Below, in pieces: positions 33,401 through 61,995 of a DNA stretch of 64,000 nt. Positions within the stretch are counted from its first letter, which is position 1. Each line of letters begins with the position of its first letter. Position numbers and translations under genes: made by a program. The stretch is from an uncultured bacterium (GTDB lineage Bacteria; Acidobacteriota; Vicinamibacteria; Vicinamibacterales; UBA2999): the NCBI GenBank assembly GCA_963923455.1, contig CAWULT010000006.1, positions 1,586 through 65,585 on the forward strand, read 5' to 3'. The notes beneath the pieces were generated by a model, which ran no database searches, was not told where the DNA came from, and saw nothing but the letters and a program-made list of their open reading frames with translations.

Positions 33401-33686
33401 GCTCCTGCACGAGCCGGGCGAACCCGGAACCCTCGACGGTCAGGCGATACTGGCCCACCGGCAGGAGCAGCAGTCGGAAGAAGCCATCGGCGCCACTCGT
33501 CGTCTGCCGGGTGAGACCAGTGGCGAGGTGCTGGGCCGTCACGCGGGCGCCCGGCACCACGGCGGCCGTCGTGTCGGCCACCGCCCCCTCGATCGCGCCG
33601 GTCGAATCCTGCGCGAACGCCGCCGCGGCCGTCATCAGCCCGAACAACGCGGCGCAGACGGCGCGCCGGAACTTCCAGACTCGCAT
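30414..33686 (-). CDS. TonB-dependent receptor with an N-terminal carboxypeptidase-regulatory-like domain
   Basis: Internal ATG 33686 (GAGGAA upstream), 1090 aa. Signal MRVWKFRRAVCAALFGLMTAAAAFAQD, a CarboxypepD_reg-like GAVADTTAAVVPGARVTA...GFFRLLLLPVGQYRLTVE, plug LPLNGRNFTQL and a terminal aromatic ...LKLIF. Confidence 0.9.
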   Translation of the reverse strand: MRVWKFRRAVCAALFGLMTAAAAFAQDSTGAIEGAVADTTAAVVPGARVTAQHLATGLTRQTTSGADGFFRLLLLPVGQYRLTVEGSGFARLVQEPVTVNVSQTARVDARLELATVAETVTVAGRSALVDTTTNTLGAVVTGREIVDLPLNGRNFTQLGLLQTGVAPLTAGVATAGGSLRQGQAYAVNGMRPEQNVYLIDGSQNMNRMDGGYALRMPVDAIAEFRILTQSAPPEFGGTGGATTAVVTKSGGNQVHGNVYEFVRNDAFDARNFFSEKVEPLEQHQFGGTLGGPVAKDRAFFFGYYEGFRNHQGITTQATVPTAAERRGDFSGLGAPLLNLAAGGVPFPGNQIPAATINPIALNVLNMYPLGNVSPSIYRETVVGDNIVNQAGGRVDINASGADQVFARYSYSGGHNINPISVRGSDVPGFPTRDDIATHSGVVSNNHILSPSMTNSLRGTFLRHKFFFDERLNRTPPSALGFGYASSNEVGQGPPFFNIVGYTPIGGAITGPRNSTQTTFEVQDGLAWTRGSHLMKVGGEYRRTGIDMVQAIAPNAFYVFAGTFPTNNAIANLLLGSPVTFYQGLGDFNRGVRVWSLGTYAQDEWRVGSRLTLNVGLRYERINPFTEVQDRLNAFVPGQQSTVRPDAPRGLLFPGDAGVGKGIAQSVNAFMPRGGFAWDPTGDGTWSVRGAYGLYYDQFQNGAGTASQVAISATPAAQFNQYSGAGLNFQNPYAGRVYPSPDTFVRPSTVFALDVDAKPPSVQNWNIGVQRSLFGLYLVEARYVGAEGRHLPRNVEYNPAVHGPGATAQNADRRRLYANCPADGSACDFSTIAMLRSVARSSYHAGQFSVSRRFDSNVGFNVSYWLSKSMDHLSSMNLSGAAAKPLAGENDLAQNPFDLEAEWGPSLFDARHRLVASVSWIGHVPAGAPAGVRAVFDDWQINAIGTANSGTPFTVSDSANVALQANSPPISGFPASRPNLVGDPNAGPRTVEQWLSRSAFQRLDIQTQAGQFGNAGRNIARGPGYANLDMSLVRDIALRGQTRLQVRAEVFNVLNHVNLGLPVADLNSPNFGRILSAGPPRLMQFALKLIF

Positions 33687-34240
33687 CAGCTGGTTCCTCT
33701 CGTCACGGTGGACGCCGCGTACCCGTGCTCGGCCACGATCGCGGCGCGGGCGCGGTAGAAATCCGGATCCTCGGGCGCCCAGGTGGCCAGTCCATCCACG
33801 TAGCGGTTGCACATGCAGAACACGGCGGCGATCAGCACCGTGTCGTGAATCTCCAGGTCGGTCGCCCCTGCGGCGCGCGCCCGCGCGACGTCGTCCGCCG
33901 TCACCTGCCGGCCGCCCTCCGCCGTCCTGGCGGCGATGGCCAGCAGGGCCTTCAGCTTCTCGCTGATGGGCGCCCGGGCCGGGTCGCGCTTGACGTCCAG
34001 CACCAGCCCTTCGTCCTGCAGGTGGTGCGCCGCGACCGCGCCGTGGATCGTCTGGCAGTACTGACAGTCGTTCTGCGACGACACGTAGGTCGCGATGAGC
34101 TCCCGTTCCCCTGGCGTCAGCGTGTGCGGACCGCGCAGCAGGACGTCCACCAGTTCGTTGAGCGGCCTGGCCGTCTCGGGACGGAACGCCATCGGCCCCC
34201 GGATGCCCGGCAGGCCCGGTGGCAGGTCGATATGGGCCAT
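33686..34240 (-). CDS. AhpD/carboxymuconolactone-decarboxylase-like peroxidase-related protein (paralog 1)
   Basis: Internal ATG 34240, 184 aa. CxxC motif NDCQYCQ and EIHDTVLIAAVFCMCNRYVDGLA. The stop overlaps the receptor ATG (TGATG). Confidence 0.75.
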   Translation of the reverse strand: MAHIDLPPGLPGIRGPMAFRPETARPLNELVDVLLRGPHTLTPGERELIATYVSSQNDCQYCQTIHGAVAAHHLQDEGLVLDVKRDPARAPISEKLKALLAIAARTAEGGRQVTADDVARARAAGATDLEIHDTVLIAAVFCMCNRYVDGLATWAPEDPDFYRARAAIVAEHGYAASTVTRGTS

Positions 34241-34343
34241 GAATCCTCGCGTCAGTCCCGGGACGTCGCCGTCTCGATGCGCGGGCGGCGCGTGCCAGGC
34301 TGTGGGTTGGCGTCGACGCCGGGCGGGAAGCACGACGCCACGT

Positions 34344-34907
34344 TCAGCGGGGCCCCGCGCCGGCCGCCTCCGGCGGACGCACGTAGCCCTGCTTCGCCAT
34401 CCGCTGCCCCATCGCGTCGTACGCGGCCTCGTCTGTCGGCGTGACCGTGGCCAGCCCGTCGACGTAGCGATTGAACATGCAGAAGGCCGCGGCGATGAGG
34501 ACGGTGTCGTGGATCTCGACGTCGGTCGCACCCTGGGCCCTGGCGGCGGCGACATCGGCGGCCGTCACCCGCCTGCCCCCTTCCTGGACCCTGGCCGCGA
34601 TGGCGAGCAGCGCCTTGAGCTTCGGCGACACGGCCGCCGTGCGGTAGTCCGCGCGCACGGCGTCGACGAGCGCATAATCGCCGCCGAGGTGATGCGCGGC
34701 GGCGGCGCGGTGGCTCAGTTGGCAGAAGTCACAGTCGTTGCGCGAGGACACGAACGTCGCGATCATCTCGCGCTCGCCGCTCGTCAGGGTGTTGGGGCCG
34801 CGCAGCAGCACCTCGGCCAGCTCGCGCATGGGCTTCGCCGTCTCGGGCCTGAAGGCGAACGCGCTGGAGATGCCGGGCAGGTCGACGGGCAGGGCGATGT
34901 GTGGCAC
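34344..34907 (-). CDS. AhpD/carboxymuconolactone-decarboxylase-like peroxidase-related protein (paralog 2)
   Basis: 187 aa, collinear with paralog 1. Shared blocks include FRPETA, VLLRGP, NDCxxCQ, KLKALLAIAAR and EIHDTVLIAA.FCM.NRYVDGLAT. Confidence 0.75.
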   Translation of the reverse strand: MPHIALPVDLPGISSAFAFRPETAKPMRELAEVLLRGPNTLTSGEREMIATFVSSRNDCDFCQLSHRAAAAHHLGGDYALVDAVRADYRTAAVSPKLKALLAIAARVQEGGRRVTAADVAAARAQGATDVEIHDTVLIAAAFCMFNRYVDGLATVTPTDEAAYDAMGQRMAKQGYVRPPEAAGAGPR

Positions 34908-35577: not shown

Positions 35578-35643
35578 GACCCATCGTAGCCCGGCCCCCG
35601 CGAGAACGGCCGAAAATCCGGGAAAGTCGGGGTGGTCCGTAGC

Positions 35644-35672
35644 TTGACTTCGCATCCCGGACTCCCTACACT
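35644..35672 (+). promoter_or_regulatory. Sigma70-type promoter of the cold-shock gene
   Basis: TTGACT-17 nt-TACACT. It predicts a 5' UTR of about 115 nt before ATG 35794. Confidence 0.5.
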
Positions 35673-35793
35673 GGCCCATCCTTCAGGCCGACGCGCGGCG
35701 GTTCGCGACCATTCTTCGTGGCCTCATGCGTCCGCTCAGGCGGTCTTTCGCGCCTGGGGTGTCTCACGGATAGCGCATCGGAGGCGCACGGCT

Positions 35794-36000
35794 ATGGCGA
35801 ATGGCACGATCGCACGGCTTCTCATCGACAAGGGATTCGGCTTCATCCGTGACGAGGGAGGCACCGAACACTTCTTTCACCGCAGCGCGGTTCGTGGGGC
35901 GGTGTTCGAACTGCTGCGGGAAGGACAGCGGGTGGAGTTCCAGCCCGAGGACTCCGCCAAGGGCCCGCGCGCCGGTGACGTCCGCCTGATCGAGGGCTGA
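35794..36000 (+). CDS. Cold-shock domain protein (CspA family)
   Basis: Internal ATG 35794 with GGAGG 9 nt upstream, 68 aa. RNP1-like KGFGFI and FFHRSAV. Confidence 0.85.
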   Translation: MANGTIARLLIDKGFGFIRDEGGTEHFFHRSAVRGAVFELLREGQRVEFQPEDSAKGPRAGDVRLIEG

Positions 36001-36028
36001 CGCCCCGCCCGCGCACCCGCAAGACCTG

Positions 36029-36050
36029 CCCGGTCCGCTCGAGGACCGGG
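36029..36050 (+). terminator. Hairpin downstream of the csp gene
   Basis: CCCGGTCC-GCTCGA-GGACCGGG followed by CTTCTCC, a weak T-tract. Confidence 0.4.
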
Positions 36051-36138
36051 CTTCTCCGCTGTCAGGCTTCTTCCGACACGCCAGCCCCGACCGTGGCGCG
36101 CGTGGTTCAGGCTTCTGGGCCTGCGCCTGCATGCCGGC

Positions 36139-36855
36139 TCACGAGAACCAGCGACGCCAGCCCGACTCCGGCGTGAGTTCGCCCGATCCCGGCTGCCACG
36201 TCAGCACCGTTCGCGCGACGTCGCGCGCAAAGGCCTTCTCTGCCGTGAGTACGAGCACCGACAGGCGCCGGCGCTCCACGATGCGCGTGACCGTGTCGGC
36301 GAACGCCGCGACGTCGCCGCCCTGCAGCGTGGCCGTGGGGTGTTCGAGCAGCAGCAGGTCGGGGCCGAGGGCGAGCGTCCGGCCCAGCCGCAGGCGTGCC
36401 CGCTGCGGTGGCGTCAGCGTCTCGGTGACCTGGCTGAGCTCGGCTGGCGACAGGCCGACTTCGTCGGCCAGGCCCCGCACCCGCGCGCGCACGTCGTCGG
36501 AGAGCGACTCCACGGCCAGCGACAGCGGGATGGCGAGATTCTGCTCGGCCGTGAACTGCTCGACGAACACCGTCCGCTCGCTGAACAGGCCGAAGCGCTC
36601 GAGCGACGTCAACCAGGCGTCGGCATTCGGGATGTCTCGCGTGTCGCGGCCGAAGGCGATCACCTGCCCGGCGTCGGGCACGGTCGACCCGGTGATCAGG
36701 TCGACCAGCACCTGCGCGGCCTCGCGGTCGAGCCCGATCAGCGCCTTCGACTCGGCGTGCGCGAGGTCGAGCGCCTTCACGCGCAGCGGACGCAGCCCGC
36801 GATAGTCCTTCACGACGGACCGCAGGCTGACGACGACCGCGCCCGCGTCAGACAC
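36139..36855 (-). CDS. ABC-ATPase-fold protein with all catalytic motifs substituted (pseudo-ATPase)
   Basis: 238 aa, collinear with ABC NBDs. The Walker A position reads ALIGLDREAAQVLVDLITG, the signature LTPPQRARLRLGRTL, Walker B LLLLEHPT and the H-loop position LTAEKAF. 8-nt overlap with the upstream PHP gene. Confidence 0.65.
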   Translation of the reverse strand: MSDAGAVVVSLRSVVKDYRGLRPLRVKALDLAHAESKALIGLDREAAQVLVDLITGSTVPDAGQVIAFGRDTRDIPNADAWLTSLERFGLFSERTVFVEQFTAEQNLAIPLSLAVESLSDDVRARVRGLADEVGLSPAELSQVTETLTPPQRARLRLGRTLALGPDLLLLEHPTATLQGGDVAAFADTVTRIVERRRLSVLVLTAEKAFARDVARTVLTWQPGSGELTPESGWRRWFS

Positions 36856-37672
36856 CGTGCCGCGCGGCGCGCAGCCTGGCCCAGGCGTCGGCCGGCAGCG
36901 TCACCGACCCCGGCGACGGCGCGTGGCTCGCATCGCCGTGGAAGTCCGACCCGCCCGTGACCAGCAGCCCCAGGTCAGCGGCGAGACCGGAATAGTGCGC
37001 CACGAGCTCGGCGTCGTGGTCCCAGTGGAACACCTCGAGCGCGTCGAGGCCGGCGTCGCGCAGTTCGGGAATGCGTTTCGCCACCTTGGTGCGGGCCGGA
37101 TGCGCGAGCGACACCAGCCCGCCGCCCTTGTGGACCACGTCGATCACGACCTCGGGCGTGGGGCCGATGCGGGGCACGAACGCCTGGCACCCGTCCCCGA
37201 GCCATTCGTCGAAGGCCTCCTGCAGCGAGGCGACGTGGCCGGCCGCGAGCATCGCGCGGGCCAGCACCGGCCGCCCGATCGCGCGGCCGGGCTGCGAGCG
37301 GACGACGTCGACCATCGGGCCCACGTCGATCGGCACACCCAGCTCGGCGAGCCGCTCGCCGATCAGTTCGATGCGGCGGATGCGCGCCTCGCGCTGCACC
37401 GCCAGGAACTCGAGGAACGACGGCTCGTCCGGGTCGATGAAGTACCCGAGCATGTGCACGTCGCGGCCCGCGTCGACGGCGGTGATCTCGATGCCGGGCA
37501 CCGCCTCGATCCCGCGCGCCCTCGCGAGCGACCGGACCTCGGCCACCGCCGCGGTGGTGTCGTGATCGGTGACCGCCATCACGGTCAGACCGGCGGCCGC
37601 GGCCTTGTCGACGAGTTCGAGCGGAGTGGAGAGACCGTCGGACGCGGTCGTGTGCAGGTGCAGATCGATCAT
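36848..37672 (-). CDS. PHP-domain phosphoesterase (TrpH/YciV-like)
   Basis: Internal ATG 37672 (ATGA overlap with the upstream stop), 274 aa. MIDLHLHTTASDG, AVTDHDT and GGSDFHG metal-binding motifs. Confidence 0.85.
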   Translation of the reverse strand: MIDLHLHTTASDGLSTPLELVDKAAAAGLTVMAVTDHDTTAAVAEVRSLARARGIEAVPGIEITAVDAGRDVHMLGYFIDPDEPSFLEFLAVQREARIRRIELIGERLAELGVPIDVGPMVDVVRSQPGRAIGRPVLARAMLAAGHVASLQEAFDEWLGDGCQAFVPRIGPTPEVVIDVVHKGGGLVSLAHPARTKVAKRIPELRDAGLDALEVFHWDHDAELVAHYSGLAADLGLLVTGGSDFHGDASHAPSPGSVTLPADAWARLRAARHGV

Positions 37673-38649
37673 CGCGTGCGGGGGCGCGGCCCCGCGGCGG
37701 CGCGAGCGAGCTTCTCGGGCCGGTCCTGGCGTTTGACGAGGGACCGGTACTCGCGCTCGAGCAGCTCCAGATGATCCCGTTCCTCGTCGGCGAACTCGAG
37801 GAAGATCTGCTTGCCCTCGGAGTCCTCGAACTGCTCGCCGTACTTCTTGAAGAAGCTGTGCGATCCGCGCTCGCATCGGATGCCGATGAGCAGCGCCTGC
37901 TGGTCGTTGACGCCCTTGAGCAGCTGCTCCGCGCCCTCGGCGAAGATCCCGTTGGCCGCGCCCTTGAAGAACAGGAACGTCGGCCGCGATTCGAGCACGG
38001 GGTCGCGTCGCAGCAGCTCGGCGTAGCGTTCCTCCAGCTTCGCCAGGTGCGACTTCTCCTCGAGCGCCAGGTGCTGGAAGACCTTGCGCCCCTGCGCGTC
38101 CTTGGTGACCCGCGCGGCCCGGGTGTAGAACTCGAGGCCGCTCCGCTCGGTGGCGATCGCGATGCGCAGTGCGTCGCGCGCGAACACCAGGTCGGTGTGG
38201 CCGTCGTGCGCGGTGACCGTCCGGCCCGCCTGGCAGTCCTCGCAGGCGCCGTAGATCTGCACCACGCTCTGCGCCACGTTGAAGCGCCGCGCGACGGCGA
38301 CCTCCTCGACGAGCGACTCGATGTCGGAGCTGAGGAACTCGAACGAGCGATGGCAGGTCTTGCAGATCAGGTGGAAGTGGCGGGGCTGCCGGTACGAATG
38401 CTCGAACCGGAACCGGCCCTCGCCGAAGTCCACCTTGCGCGCGATCCCGGCGTCCACCATCCACTGCAGCGTGCGGTAGACGGTGGCGCGGCTGATCCGA
38501 TGGTCGTCCCGGCGGATGACGTCGACGAGGTCGTCGGCGCTGAGGTGCCCTTCCTGGCGCAGGAAGACGTTGACGATCTGCTCCCGCTTGCTGGAGCGCT
38601 TACCGCCAGCCGGCTTCAGTCTGCTGAGATCGGGAACCGCCGTTGCCAC
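37669..38649 (-). CDS. Fur-family transcriptional regulator fused to a rubrerythrin/ferritin-like diiron domain
   Basis: 326 aa. N-terminal Fur-like region with SRATVYRTLQWMVDAGIA and CxxC pairs CKTC and CEDC. The C-terminal domain has two E...ExxH repeats: ATERSGLEFY + EEKSH, and RCERGSHSFF + EERDH. Confidence 0.75.
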   Translation of the reverse strand: MATAVPDLSRLKPAGGKRSSKREQIVNVFLRQEGHLSADDLVDVIRRDDHRISRATVYRTLQWMVDAGIARKVDFGEGRFRFEHSYRQPRHFHLICKTCHRSFEFLSSDIESLVEEVAVARRFNVAQSVVQIYGACEDCQAGRTVTAHDGHTDLVFARDALRIAIATERSGLEFYTRAARVTKDAQGRKVFQHLALEEKSHLAKLEERYAELLRRDPVLESRPTFLFFKGAANGIFAEGAEQLLKGVNDQQALLIGIRCERGSHSFFKKYGEQFEDSEGKQIFLEFADEERDHLELLEREYRSLVKRQDRPEKLARAAAGPRPRTR

Positions 38650-38676
38650 GCTGCCCGCCGGGACGTCTGAGGGTGA

Positions 38677-39027
38677 CTAGTGGTGGTGACCGCCGCCTTC
38701 GCCGTCGACGCTGAACGACGACCCGCACCCGCAGGTGGACGTGGCGTTCGGGTTGCGGATCGTGAAGCCGCCGCCCGTGACGGTGTCGACGAAGTCGACC
38801 TCCGCGCCCTTCAGGTAGCTGACGCTGACCGGATCGACGAACAGCTTGATGCCGTTCGATTCGAACACCTGATCGCCGACGCCGCCGCCCTCCTCGATCA
38901 TGAGGCCGTACTGGAAACCGGAGCAGCCGCCGCCCTGCACGAACACGCGCAGGCCGCTGGTCTCCTTGCCCTCTTCCACGAGCAGCTCGGTGATCTTGGT
39001 CGCCGCCGCTGGAGAAACGTTGATCAT
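38677..39027 (-). CDS. erpA: A-type iron-sulfur cluster insertion protein (ErpA/IscA/HesB family)
   Basis: 116 aa. GGGCSGFQY and C-terminal CGCGSSF cluster ligands. Unusual 11-residue tail SVDGEGGGHHH. Confidence 0.9.
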   Translation of the reverse strand: MINVSPAAATKITELLVEEGKETSGLRVFVQGGGCSGFQYGLMIEEGGGVGDQVFESNGIKLFVDPVSVSYLKGAEVDFVDTVTGGGFTIRNPNATSTCGCGSSFSVDGEGGGHHH

Positions 39028-39056
39028 CGCTGGTGACTCCTCGAGTGTGTCGGGCC

Positions 39057-39062
39057 ATTATA
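39057..39062 (-). promoter_or_regulatory. Perfect TATAAT -10 box upstream of erpA
   Basis: The minus strand reads GGGCTATAATGGCC, then GGAG, then ATG 39027, giving a leader of about 25 nt. It is flanked by the imperfect inverted repeat GGCCTATA...TATAATGGCC. Confidence 0.4.
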
Positions 39063-39108
39063 GCCCAGAAATACGACCATTCGGGGCGTATAGGCCAAGT
39101 CTCTGATT

Positions 39109-40638
39109 CTAGGACATTTCCGAGGCCATCGCAGCCAGCTCTCCGGCCGACGCCCGCTCGACGTCGCCGTGCAGGCTGTTGCCATGGGCGTCCATCGTCA
39201 CGATGGCCGGGAAATCCTCCACCTGCAGGTGCCACATGGCTTCGGGCGTGCCGAACTCGAGCAGCGAGACGCCGTCGACCTGCGTGATGGTCCGCGCGTA
39301 GAACTGGGCCGCTCCGCCGATCGCGTTCAGGTAGACGGCCCCGTGCTCCTTCAGCGCCGCCAGCGTCCTGCCGCCCATGCCGCCCTTGCCGATCACGGCG
39401 CGCACGCCGTAGCGGCGGATCACGTCGGCCTGGTACGGCTCCTCGCGGATGCTGGTCGTCGGGCCTGCGGCCGTCACGCGCCACCTGTCGCCGTCCTTGG
39501 CGACCACGGGGCCGCAGTGGTACAGCACGGCGCCGCGCAGGTCGACCGGCGGCTCGTGGCTCATCAGGTGATGATGCACGGCGTCACGGCCCGTGTAGGC
39601 CCGCCCGGACACCAGCACGATGTCGCCGACCTTGAGCGACCGCACCGCTTCCTCGGTGAGCGGCGTCCGCAGCACCACTTCGCGGCCCGTCCGCTGGAAG
39701 CCCGCCTGATCGGCCATCGCGAGCAGCGGGCTCGCCGGGTCGCGGTAGAGCCACCGCTTGATGGCCCCGGTCCGGGCGTCGAGCACGACGCCGAGGCGCC
39801 GGAAGGCCCAGCAGTCGTACGCCACCGACACGAAGAAGCTGGCCGGCAGGCGGTTCAGCGCGCCGATCTTGCAGCCGATGAGCGACACGGCGCCGCCGAA
39901 GCCCATCGTGCCGACGCCCAGCTTGTTGATCTCGCCCATGATCCGGGCCTCGAGCCCGGCGAGCCGCGAGTCCGGGTTCACGTCGTCGAGCGTCCGGAAC
40001 AACTGCTCCTTGGCGTGCACGTAGCCCGAGGTCCGGTCGCCGCCGATGCAGACGCCGATGGCGCCGGGCGCACAGCCCTTGCCCTGCGCGTGCCACACCG
40101 CGTGCAGGATGCACTTGCGAACGCCCTCGAGCGAGCGGTCGGCCCGGCCGAGGTTCGGCAGTTCGACGGGCAGCGCGTACTGCGAGTTCATGTTCTCGCA
40201 GCCGCCGCCCTTGAGAATCAGCTTCACCTCGATCTCGTCGTCGTTCTCCCACTGCTCGAAGTGGACGATCGGCGTGCCGGGCCCGAGGTTGTTGCCCGAA
40301 TTCTCCCCGGTCAGCGAGTCGACGGAATTGGGGCGAAGCTTGCCGCGCTTGGTGGCCTCGGCCACGGCCTCGCGGATCAGCTTCTTCATGACGATCTGGT
40401 TCGCCCCGACCGGCGTCTTCACCTCGAACGTGGGCATGCCGGTGTCCTGGCAGATCGCGCCCTCGCCTTCGGCGGCCTGGTCGATGTTGAGCGCGATGAT
40501 GTTCAGCGCCTGCGCCGACCGCGAGCCCGAGGCCTCCTGCCCCATGGCCACTTTCATCGCGGCTCGCACGTCCGGCGGCAGATCCGTGGAGGTGCGCACG
40601 ACCAGGGACACGACGCTGTCGAAGAACGATGGAAGCAT
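39109..40638 (-). CDS. Class I (Fe-S dependent) fumarate hydratase, fused alpha/beta type
   Basis: 509 aa. AICQDTGMPTF, KGGGCENMN and a C-terminal beta-subunit-like GPTTSIREEPY...VIGKGGMG. Confidence 0.85.
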   Translation of the reverse strand: MLPSFFDSVVSLVVRTSTDLPPDVRAAMKVAMGQEASGSRSAQALNIIALNIDQAAEGEGAICQDTGMPTFEVKTPVGANQIVMKKLIREAVAEATKRGKLRPNSVDSLTGENSGNNLGPGTPIVHFEQWENDDEIEVKLILKGGGCENMNSQYALPVELPNLGRADRSLEGVRKCILHAVWHAQGKGCAPGAIGVCIGGDRTSGYVHAKEQLFRTLDDVNPDSRLAGLEARIMGEINKLGVGTMGFGGAVSLIGCKIGALNRLPASFFVSVAYDCWAFRRLGVVLDARTGAIKRWLYRDPASPLLAMADQAGFQRTGREVVLRTPLTEEAVRSLKVGDIVLVSGRAYTGRDAVHHHLMSHEPPVDLRGAVLYHCGPVVAKDGDRWRVTAAGPTTSIREEPYQADVIRRYGVRAVIGKGGMGGRTLAALKEHGAVYLNAIGGAAQFYARTITQVDGVSLLEFGTPEAMWHLQVEDFPAIVTMDAHGNSLHGDVERASAGELAAMASEMS

Positions 40639-40648
40639 AGACGGTCAG

Positions 40649-40654
40649 TATAAT
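40649..40654 (+). promoter_or_regulatory. Perfect TATAAT hexamer in the 33-bp fumarase/methyltransferase spacer
   Basis: TATAAT ends 18 nt before ATG 40672. No convincing -35 was seen. Confidence 0.3.
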
Positions 40655-40671
40655 TTGATCCCGAGCACCGC

Positions 40672-41334
40672 ATGCCGCCACGGCTCCCCTGTCTCGCCGT
40701 TCTGCTCGCGGTGGCGGTGCCCATCGCCCTCTGGGCCCAGGCGCCGGCGTCGGGCGGCAACCGCCGCCTCTTCCCTCCGCAGGATCTCGGCCTGCTCGAA
40801 GGCCCCGACCGCGCCACCTGGCAGCGCCCCGACCAGATCATGGACGCGCTGGGCATCGCCGACGGCGCGAGCGTGGCCGACATCGGCGCCGGCGCCGGCT
40901 GGTTCACGATCCGCCTGGCCCGGCGCGTCGGGCCGAACGGCACCGTCTACGCTCAGGACGTCCAGCGCCAGATGCTCGAGGCGATCCGGAGGCGCGTGGC
41001 GCGTGAGGGACTCCGCAACGTCCAGACCCGCCTCGGCCAGGGCAGCTCGCCGAATCTGCCGAGGGGCGCGCTCGATGCCGTGCTGGTCGTCGACGTCTAC
41101 CCGGAAGTCGAGGACCGCGTCGCGTTCCTGCGCAACCTGACCGTGTCGCTGCGTCCGGGCGGCCGGATCGGCATCGTCAACTACAAGCCAGGCGCCGGCG
41201 GTCCCGGGCCCGCGCCGGGCGAGGGCTTTCGCGTGGACCGGACCGTGGTGGAGAAGGACGCGATCGAGGCGGGCCTGCGGGTGCGCGCAACCGAGAACCT
41301 GCCCTACCAGTACTTGCTCGTCCTCGGCAGGTAG
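40672..41334 (+). CDS. Secreted class I SAM-dependent methyltransferase
   Basis: 220 aa. Signal-like N-terminus and motif I VADIGAGAGWFTIRLA. Confidence 0.8.
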   Translation: MPPRLPCLAVLLAVAVPIALWAQAPASGGNRRLFPPQDLGLLEGPDRATWQRPDQIMDALGIADGASVADIGAGAGWFTIRLARRVGPNGTVYAQDVQRQMLEAIRRRVAREGLRNVQTRLGQGSSPNLPRGALDAVLVVDVYPEVEDRVAFLRNLTVSLRPGGRIGIVNYKPGAGGPGPAPGEGFRVDRTVVEKDAIEAGLRVRATENLPYQYLLVLGR

Positions 41335-60353: not shown

Positions 60354-60803
60354 TCAGTTCGAAGTGTCGAACAGGAACGCTGACGAGCTGCGGCGCTGCG
60401 ACATCCGCTCGCGGTGCTCAGCGGTCTCGCGGGCCTCTTCGCAATCCTTGCAGCGCACCGCGAAGGGCAGCGCACGAAGGCGTGCCTCGGAAATCTCGTC
60501 GCCGCACTCGAAGCAGTCACCGTAGCTGCCGTCTTCCAGCCGCCGGAGCGCCGCGTCGATCTTGTTCAGCGTCTCCGACTTCATCTGGATGAGGGCGAAC
60601 TCGATGTCCTCCTGGATGTCGACCTCGGAGCTCTCGCCCTGGTCGAGGACATCGCGTTCCTTGTTCGTGTTGTCGGCGCGCACGTCGCGAATACGACCCT
60701 GCACTTCGACCATCAGCTCGCGGCGGCGGTTCTCGAGCATCTTCTTCAGCTCGTTGTAGCGACTCGTCTTGGTCGAGCCCTTCGTCTTGGTCATCGTAGC
60801 CAT
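60354..60803 (-). CDS. dksA: DksA/TraR-family C4 zinc-finger RNA-polymerase-binding protein
   Basis: 149 aa. Coiled-coil N-terminal part and zinc finger CFECGDEISEARLRALPFAVRCKDC. AAGGAG lies 9 nt upstream of the ATG. Confidence 0.88.
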   Translation of the reverse strand: MATMTKTKGSTKTSRYNELKKMLENRRRELMVEVQGRIRDVRADNTNKERDVLDQGESSEVDIQEDIEFALIQMKSETLNKIDAALRRLEDGSYGDCFECGDEISEARLRALPFAVRCKDCEEARETAEHRERMSQRRSSSAFLFDTSN

Positions 60804-61317
60804 GGTGCCTGCCGCTCCTTGGCGCCTTGCGCCGCTTCCCGGGTAATACTGCCTGGCATTCGTGGCCAGGCGCTGATATCAGTCCGTCGTTGTGTCCAGG
60901 CTATATGCAGTTCGCGTGCCGAATTTGGCCTTCTTGAGCACCGGGAACGCTCTCCCCTGAGGGTGGGCTCGGCCATGTCCTGGACTCAGGCCAACAAGAC
61001 TCTATTAATCAGTCATTTATCGGAGACGATGGCAACCGGGATTCGCGCTCGTCACCCGCACAGCCAGTAAGACGCCGACCGACGTCGTACGGTCTCCTCA
61101 AGGTAGTGCCCACTAAAGTGGACTGGCAAATCTGCCCTGTTCCACAGTCCGGCCTGCCGACAGCACGCTTGGACGTCGGATCTCCGGCCCACTGGCCTGC
61201 CAGCTCTGCCGTGTAGCTGCGGATCGGCAATGTGCATAATAATCTACATACTGGTGATGTACAAACACACCAGTTCAGTCTTCCGCAATCCAGGCCCGAT
61301 GTGCGAAGCTGTCGCCG

Positions 61318-61995
61318 ATGACCTGTCCCCTGTGCCGCCAGCGCAAGGCCAAGCGGCAGTGCCCGGCGCTCGGCCAGACGATCTGCGCCGTCTGCTGCGC
61401 GACGAAGCGCGAGAAGGAGATCGCCTGTCCAGCCACGTGTGCCCACCTGACGGCTGGCCGTGACCATCCAGCCGCCGTGGTCCGGCGCCAGCAGGAACGC
61501 GACGTCGCAGCTCTCCTGCCGTCCATGCGAGGGCTGACCGAGCGTCAGCAGCAGCTCTACTTTCTGTTCCAGACGGTCATCGCCAGCCAGAAGCCCGACG
61601 GGCTGGCCCGCCTGGTCGACCTTGACGTGGCGGAGGGGGCCGCGGCCGCCGCCGCGACACTCGAGACGGCGGCGCGAGGACTGATCTACGAGCACACGCC
61701 GCCATCGGTGCTGGCCCAGCGGCTGGCGCGGGAGTTCCAGGCGCTGCTGGCGCGCGTGCGGGAACACGGCGCCAAGGTCTTCGACCGGGAAGCGGCCCTC
61801 GTGCTGAGGGCCATCGAACGGGGCGCCCGCGAAACCCACGACAGGGCGCCGGACGCGCCCGACCCCCAGACGGCGTATCTCACCGTGATGGCAAGGCTGC
61901 TGCACATCAGCGGCCGCGGCCCGACGCCGGCGGACGGGGCGGACACGGCCGGCCCTGGCGGCCCGGGCACGCCGGGCTCACTGATCGTGCCGTAG
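61318..61995 (+). CDS. Cysteine-rich hypothetical protein
   Basis: 225 aa. Eight Cys in the first 41 residues (C3,C6,C15,C23,C26,C27,C37,C41: [41 protein letters not shown]), followed by a helical Ala/Arg/Leu-rich body. Confidence 0.65.

Follow-up and report, generated by a model that had tools for sequence, protein, structure and literature searches.

What is a diiron domain doing on a Fur repressor? The question is raised by a single gene in the 64,000-nt stretch of contig CAWULT010000006.1 analyzed here (64 kb, 71% GC; hereafter the window), which comes from an uncultured bacterium of the order Vicinamibacterales (Acidobacteriota). Fur is the textbook iron regulator of bacteria, and the product of this gene is a testable oddity within that family: it is a single polypeptide in which a Fur module is followed by a complete ferritin/rubrerythrin-type diiron domain carrying all six ligands. 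With this third domain and a length of 326 aa, it departs from the two-domain Fur protomer of about 130-170 aa.

Architecture and spread of the fusion

The fusion was first proposed in a sequence-only reading of the window, and the motifs quoted there could all be located in the product. In the Fur module these are SRATVYRTLQWMVDAGIA (residues 53-70), RHFHLIC (90-96), CKTC (96-99) and CEDC (136-139); in the C-terminal half they are ATERSGLEFY (166-175), EEKSH (197-201), RCERGSHSFF (258-267) and EERDH (289-293). The six diiron ligands claimed to be intact (E168, E198, H201, E260, E290 and H293) are likewise all present. Both domains were recovered above their curated thresholds when the protein was searched with Pfam hidden Markov models: FUR (PF01475) covered residues 15-133 (E 5.1e-25; 88.4 bits, gathering score 23.1), and Rubrerythrin (PF02915) matched in two stretches (E 1.2e-11; 45.5 bits, gathering score 22.8), well outside what chance would produce. 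For the isolated C-terminal domain the Rubrerythrin match reached E 1.8e-12, and 25 of 25 diverse members of the family gave this match too. None of the NCBIfam equivalog thresholds for Fur (71.8 against 146), PerR (63.3 against 180) or Zur (58.2 against 167) was reached by the fusion protein, and further PerR models stayed below cut-off as well (39.4 against 200; PerRA, 28.2 against 200; PerRB, 21.0 against 250). The best NCBIfam match of the C-terminal half was the terminal ferritin domain of PRK12775 (residues 125-303, E 1e-15), a protein that joins this domain to a GltD-like reductase. Within the window, no other gene of Fur-like or ferritin-like type was found.

A genome scan limited to one genome per species found relatives encoded in at least 308 species-level genomes, and 80 loci were kept. 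The fusion gene was uninterrupted in all 80, and nearly all of these loci are labelled Acidobacteriota, Vicinamibacteria or Vicinamibacterales. From a word-indexed protein search came more than 100 homologues of nearly full length (325-330 aa, 82-88% identity). All have FUR and Rubrerythrin domains and align from residues 1-3 through to the end; the few with a name go by “Fur family” or “transcriptional repressor [Vicinamibacterales bacterium]”. More divergent members emerged when 1.84 billion cluster representatives were searched exhaustively with HMMER, which yielded full-length fusions at only 33-40% identity (the named ones from Acidobacteria). A profile built from six distant fusions then drew in 850 further proteins; among the 120 listed, nearly all share the architecture and the named ones belong to Acidobacteriota or Terriglobia. 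The fusion design is conserved across Acidobacteriota, with divergent copies at 30-45% identity. Pairwise divergence of the Fur half was correlated with that of the ferritin-like half (Pearson r = 0.98 over all pairs and 0.43 over distant pairs), and in 265 of 286 homologues C139 and R158 lie 18-19 residues apart. The correlated divergence of the halves and the near-fixed length of the linker are consistent with a single ancient fusion that has been inherited as a unit. Three loci from bins labelled Acidimicrobiia and Bifidobacteriaceae (L024, L048 and L043) carry the fusion at 78-84% identity in full Vicinamibacterales synteny and are therefore most likely mis-binned acidobacterial contigs.

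Short “rubrerythrin”-only entries do exist in the databases, as would be expected if adjacent fur and rubrerythrin-like genes had been merged here by a sequencing or assembly frameshift. Two such stand-alone entries (P0232 and P0123; L087 2547-3495 and L088 2571-3486) could be checked on long contigs, however, and are themselves frameshifts in error-prone long-read metagenome assemblies, with the Fur half in frame 3 lying directly upstream of the ferritin-like half in frame 1; on both contigs the reading frames of fumarase and the PHP protein are broken as well. Another short entry, P0338 (175 aa), falls in the same 90% cluster as a 323-aa protein. No genuine stand-alone close homologue of the C-terminal domain was found among the top matches, the short entries being fragments or frameshifts. 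Given the 80 intact loci, the frameshifts in P0232 and P0123 and the clustering of P0338, the artefact was rejected as having next to no probability, and the two-gene arrangement that would have refuted the sequence-only reading was not borne out in related genomes.

Metal sites and predicted folds

Conservation was assessed over 287 full-length fusions spanning 30-100% identity, 167 of Vicinamibacterales type and 120 from other lineages. The regulatory site S2, the structural Cys4 site and the accessory site S3 were mapped by alignment to C. jejuni Fur and E. coli Fur. The S2 residues H33/E81/H88/H90/E101 of E. coli Fur correspond to H35/E83/H91/H93/E104 in the fusion and are each at least 99% conserved, the Cys4 site (C96, C99, C136 and C139) is 100% conserved, and the six diiron ligands are 95-100% conserved in Vicinamibacterales and distant lineages alike. 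Conservation of all three ligand sets at 95-100% over such a range of sequence identity argues that both metal sites are under purifying selection. With S2 intact and invariant, metal sensing most likely still proceeds as in a classical Fur, and the diiron domain would supplement it without taking its place. The carboxylates E83 and E104 do not vary, giving Glu/Glu as in Fur, whereas the regulatory carboxylates of PerR are typically Asp/Asp (D85 and D104 in B. subtilis PerR); the S2 carboxylate pair is thus Fur-like, not PerR-like. Among the fusions, T56, V57, R59, T60 and L61 are invariant or nearly so, and position 175 is always Tyr or Phe (Y175 here, seven residues after E168, the spacing known from ferritins and rubrerythrins). 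Helix A opens with R158-D159, an invariant pair that, together with P223 and an FLxF crossover, makes up the fusion family's own set of invariant features.

RHFHLIC had been read as a reduced form of the His cluster that usually precedes the first CxxC. The cluster is indeed reduced, but H91 and H93 are retained and S2 is complete; only the accessory S3 has been lost, since its residues in E. coli (H87/D89/E108/H125) correspond to R90/F92/E111/S128. S3 is absent from 167 of 167 Vicinamibacterales homologues, whereas most other acidobacterial fusions keep a His there, and it is not universal among Fur proteins. As aligned here, RHFHLIC is a lineage-specific loss of S3 in which the regulatory site has been kept. 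A further lineage-specific trait concerns residues 259-264 (37870-37887), where an invariant Cys259 and His264 flank the ligand E260 in Vicinamibacterales (RCERGSH) and other lineages have Met/Leu and Tyr/His/Phe, respectively. These residues may represent a lineage-specific second-sphere or redox feature.

The AlphaFold 2 (AF2) model of the whole chain, built on a 149-sequence alignment, had a per-residue confidence score (pLDDT) of 85.2 and a predicted template-modeling score (pTM) of 0.75. Its Fur part consists of a winged helix-turn-helix (wHTH; helices 20-31, 38-46 and 54-66 plus a beta wing) followed by an alpha/beta dimerisation domain, after which the pLDDT falls to 68 in the linker (residues 141-150). 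This part fitted holo or DNA-bound Fur closely (4rb1_B, root-mean-square deviation (rmsd) 2.2 A; P. aeruginosa Fur 1mzb, target-normalized template-modeling (TM) score 0.85 in Foldseek); its fit to structures in the open or apo state was poor (2fe3, rmsd about 16 A). Among Fur proteins without the extra domain, the closest one seen comes from Elusimicrobiota (151 aa, 47% identity).

The isolated C-terminal domain was modeled as a four-helix bundle (pLDDT 91.5, pTM 0.84). In profile searches it matched P. furiosus 2fzf (1e-10), TM1526 1vjx (6e-10) and 2oh3 (COG1633; 2e-5), in addition to de novo “Due Ferri” diiron peptides and encapsulated ferritins; bacterioferritin (Bfr) was marginal and symerythrin was found at E 0.012. 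Foldseek matches were weak, with a best E of 4.7e-3 (2fzf) and TM scores of 0.5-0.7 (2oh3, target-normalized, 0.71), and further included the ferritin-like domain of 3fse, Dps-like proteins and Bfr. Fold similarity to cage-forming ferritins (ferritin/Bfr/Dps), which assemble into 24-mer or 12-mer shells around an iron-storage cavity, was also weak (TM 0.4-0.6), and no true rubrerythrin structure was present among the sequence matches or the 50 listed Foldseek matches. No Cys-rich module follows the bundle, and the only CxxC pairs in the protein are those of the Fur dimerisation domain. The earlier description of this half as rubrerythrin-like is therefore apt as far as the two E...ExxH motifs and the PF02915 match above the gathering score are concerned, but the rubredoxin module is missing and the top, though weak, matches are uncharacterised COG1633-type proteins. 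Judged by these comparisons, the domain is a ferritin-superfamily diiron-carboxylate domain of an uncharacterised branch and not a true rubrerythrin.

Gene neighborhood and promoter

The fusion gene lies between erpA, which encodes an A-type iron-sulfur (Fe-S) carrier, and a PHP-domain phosphoesterase gene (Table 1). The ATG of the PHP gene overlaps the TGA of the fusion gene (ATGA), which suggests translational coupling of the two, and the ABC-ATPase-like gene that follows is probably the last of an erpA-fur/ferritin-PHP-ABC unit. No transporter permease was seen beside the latter, and no terminator-like site was found in 35600-40900.

Table 1 Coordinates of the fusion gene, its domains and metal-site codons, and the neighboring genes within the window.
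Feature	Position	Strand	Details	Basis
fur/ferritin-like fusion gene	37669..38649	-	326 aa; GTG start at 38649; TGA stop 37669-37671	Open reading frame (ORF) list and sequence
Winged-helix DNA-binding domain (Fur module)	38398..38607	-	Residues about 15-84; TVYRTL recognition helix	Pfam FUR, AF2, Foldseek
Fur dimerisation domain	38227..38397	-	Residues about 85-141; structural Cys4 C96, C99, C136, C139	Alignments to CjFur, MtFurB, EcFur
Regulatory site S2 (span)	38338..38547	-	Five codons: H35 38545-38547; E83 38401-38403; H91 38377-38379; H93 38371-38373; E104 38338-38340	
Inter-domain linker	38197..38226	-	Residues about 142-151	AF2 pLDDT dip
Ferritin-like four-helix bundle	37696..38196	-	Residues 152-318; helix A 152-181, B 185-215, long B-C crossover 216-248, C 249-273, D 278-318	AF2 (helices)
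Diiron ligands (span)	37771..38148	-	Six codons, two E...ExxH motifs: E168 38146-38148; E198 38056-38058; H201 38047-38049; E260 37870-37872; E290 37780-37782; H293 37771-37773	
C-terminal tail	37672..37695	-	Residues 319-326; basic; pLDDT about 59; conservation confined to close relatives	AF2 (pLDDT)
Class I fumarase	39109..40638	-		
erpA promoter/leader	39028..39108	-	81-nt gap; -10 TATAAT at 39057-39062; -35 degenerate here	
erpA, A-type Fe-S carrier	38677..39027	-	27 nt upstream of the fusion gene	Pfam Fe-S_biosyn E 6e-19
PHP-domain phosphoesterase gene	36848..37672	-		Pfam PHP E 7e-10
ABC-ATPase-like gene	36139..36855	-	8-nt overlap with the end of the PHP gene	Weak Pfam ABC_tran E 7e-7

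This arrangement is well kept among the Vicinamibacterales loci, where erpA lies directly upstream in 80 of 80, the fumarase and the ABC-like gene occur in 78 of 80 each, and the PHP gene in 70 of 80. Three distant fusion loci, in contrast, sit in unrelated housekeeping-type contexts (prfB/recJ/lptD; fabA/lpxA/lpxI; Fer2/FGGY kinase) with none of the erpA/fumarase/PHP/ABC synteny. Linkage to erpA is thus specific to the order Vicinamibacterales and the synteny is not strong functional evidence, while the change of context between distant lineages fits a global regulator better than a locus-specific one. The fusion thus looks like a global, not a locus-specific, regulator. On the reading favored below, it would probably be the chief regulator of iron of the Fur type in these Acidobacteriota.

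The promoter was analyzed by aligning 81 upstream regions, namely that of the window and the 150 nt upstream of erpA in each of the 80 loci (L001-L080). A TATA[AC]T -10 box precedes erpA in 80 of the 81, just past the fumarase stop codon, and 56 regions have a TTG 15-22 nt further upstream, mostly as CTTGC[CT]-N17-TATAAT, which is a strong sigma-70-type arrangement. Some loci (L005, L010 and L040) have long erpA leaders instead, which are rich in repeats and hairpins (GGTGGTTAGTG... / ...CCACCAACCACC). The region upstream of erpA had been put forward as a target of the regulator; what the alignment reveals is a conserved promoter without a recognisable conserved operator, and with erpA linkage confined to Vicinamibacterales this proposal is unsupported. 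The upstream regions of the three distant homologues had nothing obvious in common.

Elsewhere in the window, the best Fur-box-like match, a weak one, is at 61226 (7/19 mismatches), within a comparatively AT-rich segment of 514 nt (60804-61317) between a DksA/TraR-like gene (60354-60803, minus strand; judged by the look of its sequence) and a Cys-rich ORF (61318-61995, plus strand). At a cut-off of at least 120 aa this segment holds only overlapping mechanical ORFs, none of which was taken as a real gene, and it gave no Rfam or tRNA match. On the other side of the locus, two tandem carboxymuconolactone-decarboxylase/AhpD-like paralogues with a CxxC (33686-34555 and 34344-34907, minus strand; DCQYCQ and DCDFCQ) lend the surroundings an oxidative-stress flavor. 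Only 34344-34907 has a Pfam CMD match, the other copy having been assigned by sequence similarity, and 34344-34907 was matched in only 2 of the 80 related loci.

Possible roles of the diiron domain and known systems

The reading that we favor, tentatively and at somewhat less than even probability, is that of a metal-dependent Fur repressor whose in-cis diiron centre provides a second iron or oxidant input that tunes DNA binding. The N-terminal 145 residues would act as a classical dimeric Fur, with a Zn(Cys)4 site holding the dimerisation domain and Fe2+ (or Mn2+) at S2 closing the hinge to allow operator binding. Within the C-terminal 170 residues, the bundle would bind dinuclear iron via E168, E198, H201, E260, E290 and H293. 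Diiron loading (i.e., iron sufficiency) and/or the oxidation of Fe(II)2 to Fe(III)2 by O2 or H2O2 would alter the bundle, and the altered bundle could then tune dimer geometry or DNA affinity via the short linker of fixed length, such that one protein would integrate iron supply with oxidant load. A precedent by analogy is Fpa/YlaN of Firmicutes, a small helical Fe(II)-binding protein that contacts Fur in trans, changes its DNA binding according to iron status and relieves repression (PMC11559061).

Several points weigh against this reading. A ligand set of four Glu and two His is common to enzymes and iron-storage proteins and alone is no sign of sensing. No conserved palindrome was seen in the 81 aligned erpA upstream regions, and no Fur box with six or fewer mismatches to the 19-bp E. 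coli consensus was found in the 64-kb window, although the acidobacterial box may differ from that consensus. Finally, the divergent fusion P0267 (316 aa) has lost several diiron ligands (the helix A Glu is replaced by Ala, and the ExxH motifs by IxxR and QxxR) but keeps Cys4 and part of the Fur metal site, implying that the Fur module may function without a diiron site. P0267 may be a natural “diiron-dead” variant and, as such, a useful comparator.

Alternatively, the diiron domain could be an active peroxidase, ferroxidase or oxidase, which we consider rather unlikely. As a “bodyguard”, possibly derived from the fusion of a perR-rbr-type operon, it would remove H2O2 or Fe2+ beside DNA-bound, iron-loaded Fur in a Dps-like logic; as part of a bifunctional enzyme-repressor, its turnover state would feed back on repression as a by-product, like the FAD redox state in PutA. 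Fur-family and rubrerythrin genes do adjoin in known operons (e.g., C. difficile rbr-perR-rbo-gltD), the ligand set is the same as in rubrerythrin and bacterioferritin ferroxidase centres, and the match to the reductase-fused PRK12775 indicates that such domains occur in redox-cycling contexts. However, a dedicated electron-donor module (rubredoxin or flavin domain) is absent, the gene contexts in three distant lineages offer no reductase partner, and the best matches are uncharacterised COG1633 proteins (Foldseek E at least 4.7e-3), with true rubrerythrins not among them. Regulators are, moreover, usually of low abundance, which would make the fusion a poor bulk detoxifier.

A bolder version of sensing, in which the diiron centre is the primary sensing cofactor of a phylum-wide master regulator, strikes us as unlikely. 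The Fe(II)2/Fe(III)2 state, set by O2/H2O2 and iron supply, would here gate DNA binding allosterically, and the Fur Cys4 might re-reduce the diiron site as a rubredoxin-like centre, forming a “reverse rubrerythrin” within a repressor. If true, a ferritin-fold domain would here serve a bacterial transcription factor as its sensor for the first time, and iron uptake in Acidobacteriota would be tied to oxidant load in a way that differs from Fur, PerR and Irr.

Very unlikely, in our estimate, is an Fe-S link in which Cys4 binds iron or Fe-S instead of Zn, ErpA delivers it and the diiron domain assists in assembly, repair or redox control. Such a link would accommodate the position of erpA directly before the fusion gene under a shared promoter in 80/80 Vicinamibacterales loci and the spacing of only 18 residues between the second CxxC and the bundle, and E. 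coli Fur is reported to carry [2Fe-2S] at its Cys residues and to depend on IscU to become active (PMC10318462, PMC11001641). Yet the fusion and its ligands are conserved in three distant lineages that lack the erpA linkage, synteny within one order may simply mirror shared ancestry, and the intact S2 argues for classical mononuclear sensing. That the bundle is a mere structural appendage, serving as an oligomerisation surface (e.g., for a dimer of dimers) or stabiliser with no metal-dependent role, is highly improbable: dimerisation or cage formation is common among ferritin-like bundles, some members of the Fur family work as tetramers (Chem Rev 2024) and P0267 has lost several diiron ligands, but the near-invariance of the six ligands and Y175 in 287 sequences down to about 30% identity would be left unexplained without a metal role.

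Database entries name the fusion “Fur family”, “transcriptional repressor” or, once, “Fe2+ or Zn2+ uptake regulation protein/rubrerythrin”. The architecture is therefore abundant in databases, but no description of it was found in the full-text literature searched (subscription-only papers lay outside this scope), in agreement with the sequence-only reading, which knew of no characterised member. According to a 2024 review in Chem Rev, every Fur-superfamily protomer consists of a wHTH and a dimerisation domain only; a 2026 sequence-network survey filtered out multidomain proteins by length, and a paper on rubrerythrin evolution does not mention Fur fusions. What sets the present family apart is a third metal-binding domain whose ligands have been kept across Acidobacteriota, which are among the most abundant soil phyla. 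Should the diiron centre act on DNA binding, as a second input on a metal-dependent Fur repressor would, it would constitute a new link between iron acquisition and exposure to oxygen or peroxide, and a new class of sensory domain with a ferritin fold instead of a hemerythrin fold. The iron economy of these poorly culturable organisms probably centers on this regulator, and understanding its logic would aid the reading of soil metatranscriptomes. As the protein is small and looks soluble, the sensor question is directly testable with a synthetic gene.

Compared with canonical Fur (E. coli; P. aeruginosa 1mzb; M. gryphiswaldense 4rb1; C. jejuni 4ets), the fusion has the same winged helix, alpha/beta dimerisation domain, predicted Zn(Cys)4 site and S2, and is 33% identical to E. 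coli Fur; its model matches the closed, holo conformation. It differs in its roughly 180 extra C-terminal residues, which form the diiron four-helix bundle, and in the loss of S3 in the Vicinamibacterales branch. PerR and the perR-rbr operons (B. subtilis PerR 2fe3; C. difficile) likewise pair a Fur-family regulator functionally with a rubrerythrin-type diiron protein in the biology of iron and peroxide, although as adjacent genes and not in one chain, a relationship reminiscent of a Rosetta stone. PerR represses rbr in those operons, and physical coupling of the two proteins is not known; furthermore, the fusion has Glu83/Glu104 instead of Asp/Asp, and its diiron domain lacks a rubredoxin module and bears no close likeness to true rubrerythrins. 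Rubrerythrin sensu stricto carries a rubredoxin-type Fe(Cys)4 relay on the same chain, whereas the bundle of the fusion comes without such a domain. The closest matches of the C-terminal half in sequence and fold are COG1633-type proteins (TM1526 1vjx, P. furiosus 2fzf and M. magnetotacticum 2oh3), which have a single-chain bundle with two E...ExxH motifs but are stand-alone proteins of uncharacterised function and resemble it only weakly (profile E about 1e-10, TM 0.5-0.7, rmsd 5-10 A).

The likeness to Fpa/YlaN is conceptual only, as there is no relation in sequence or fold and no YlaN-type family among the Pfam matches; Fpa/YlaN acts in trans with mononuclear Fe(II), whereas the module of the fusion would act in cis with a dinuclear site. 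In hemerythrin-type diiron sensors (mammalian FBXL5; bacterial DcrH and Bhr-DGC) a bundle that senses iron or oxygen is attached to an output module, which makes them a second, non-homologous precedent for the logic proposed here. These belong to a different fold family with a His-rich site, in contrast to the carboxylate-rich, ferritin-like site of the fusion, and none of them is known to have a Fur DNA-binding module as its output. Finally, the recruitment of a ferritin-like diiron domain as an accessory module is shared with Erythrin-VIT1 (MbfA), the DJ-1 plus ferritin-like protein 3fse and PRK12775; in those proteins the partners are transporters or enzymes, whereas in the acidobacterial fusion the partner is a transcription factor.

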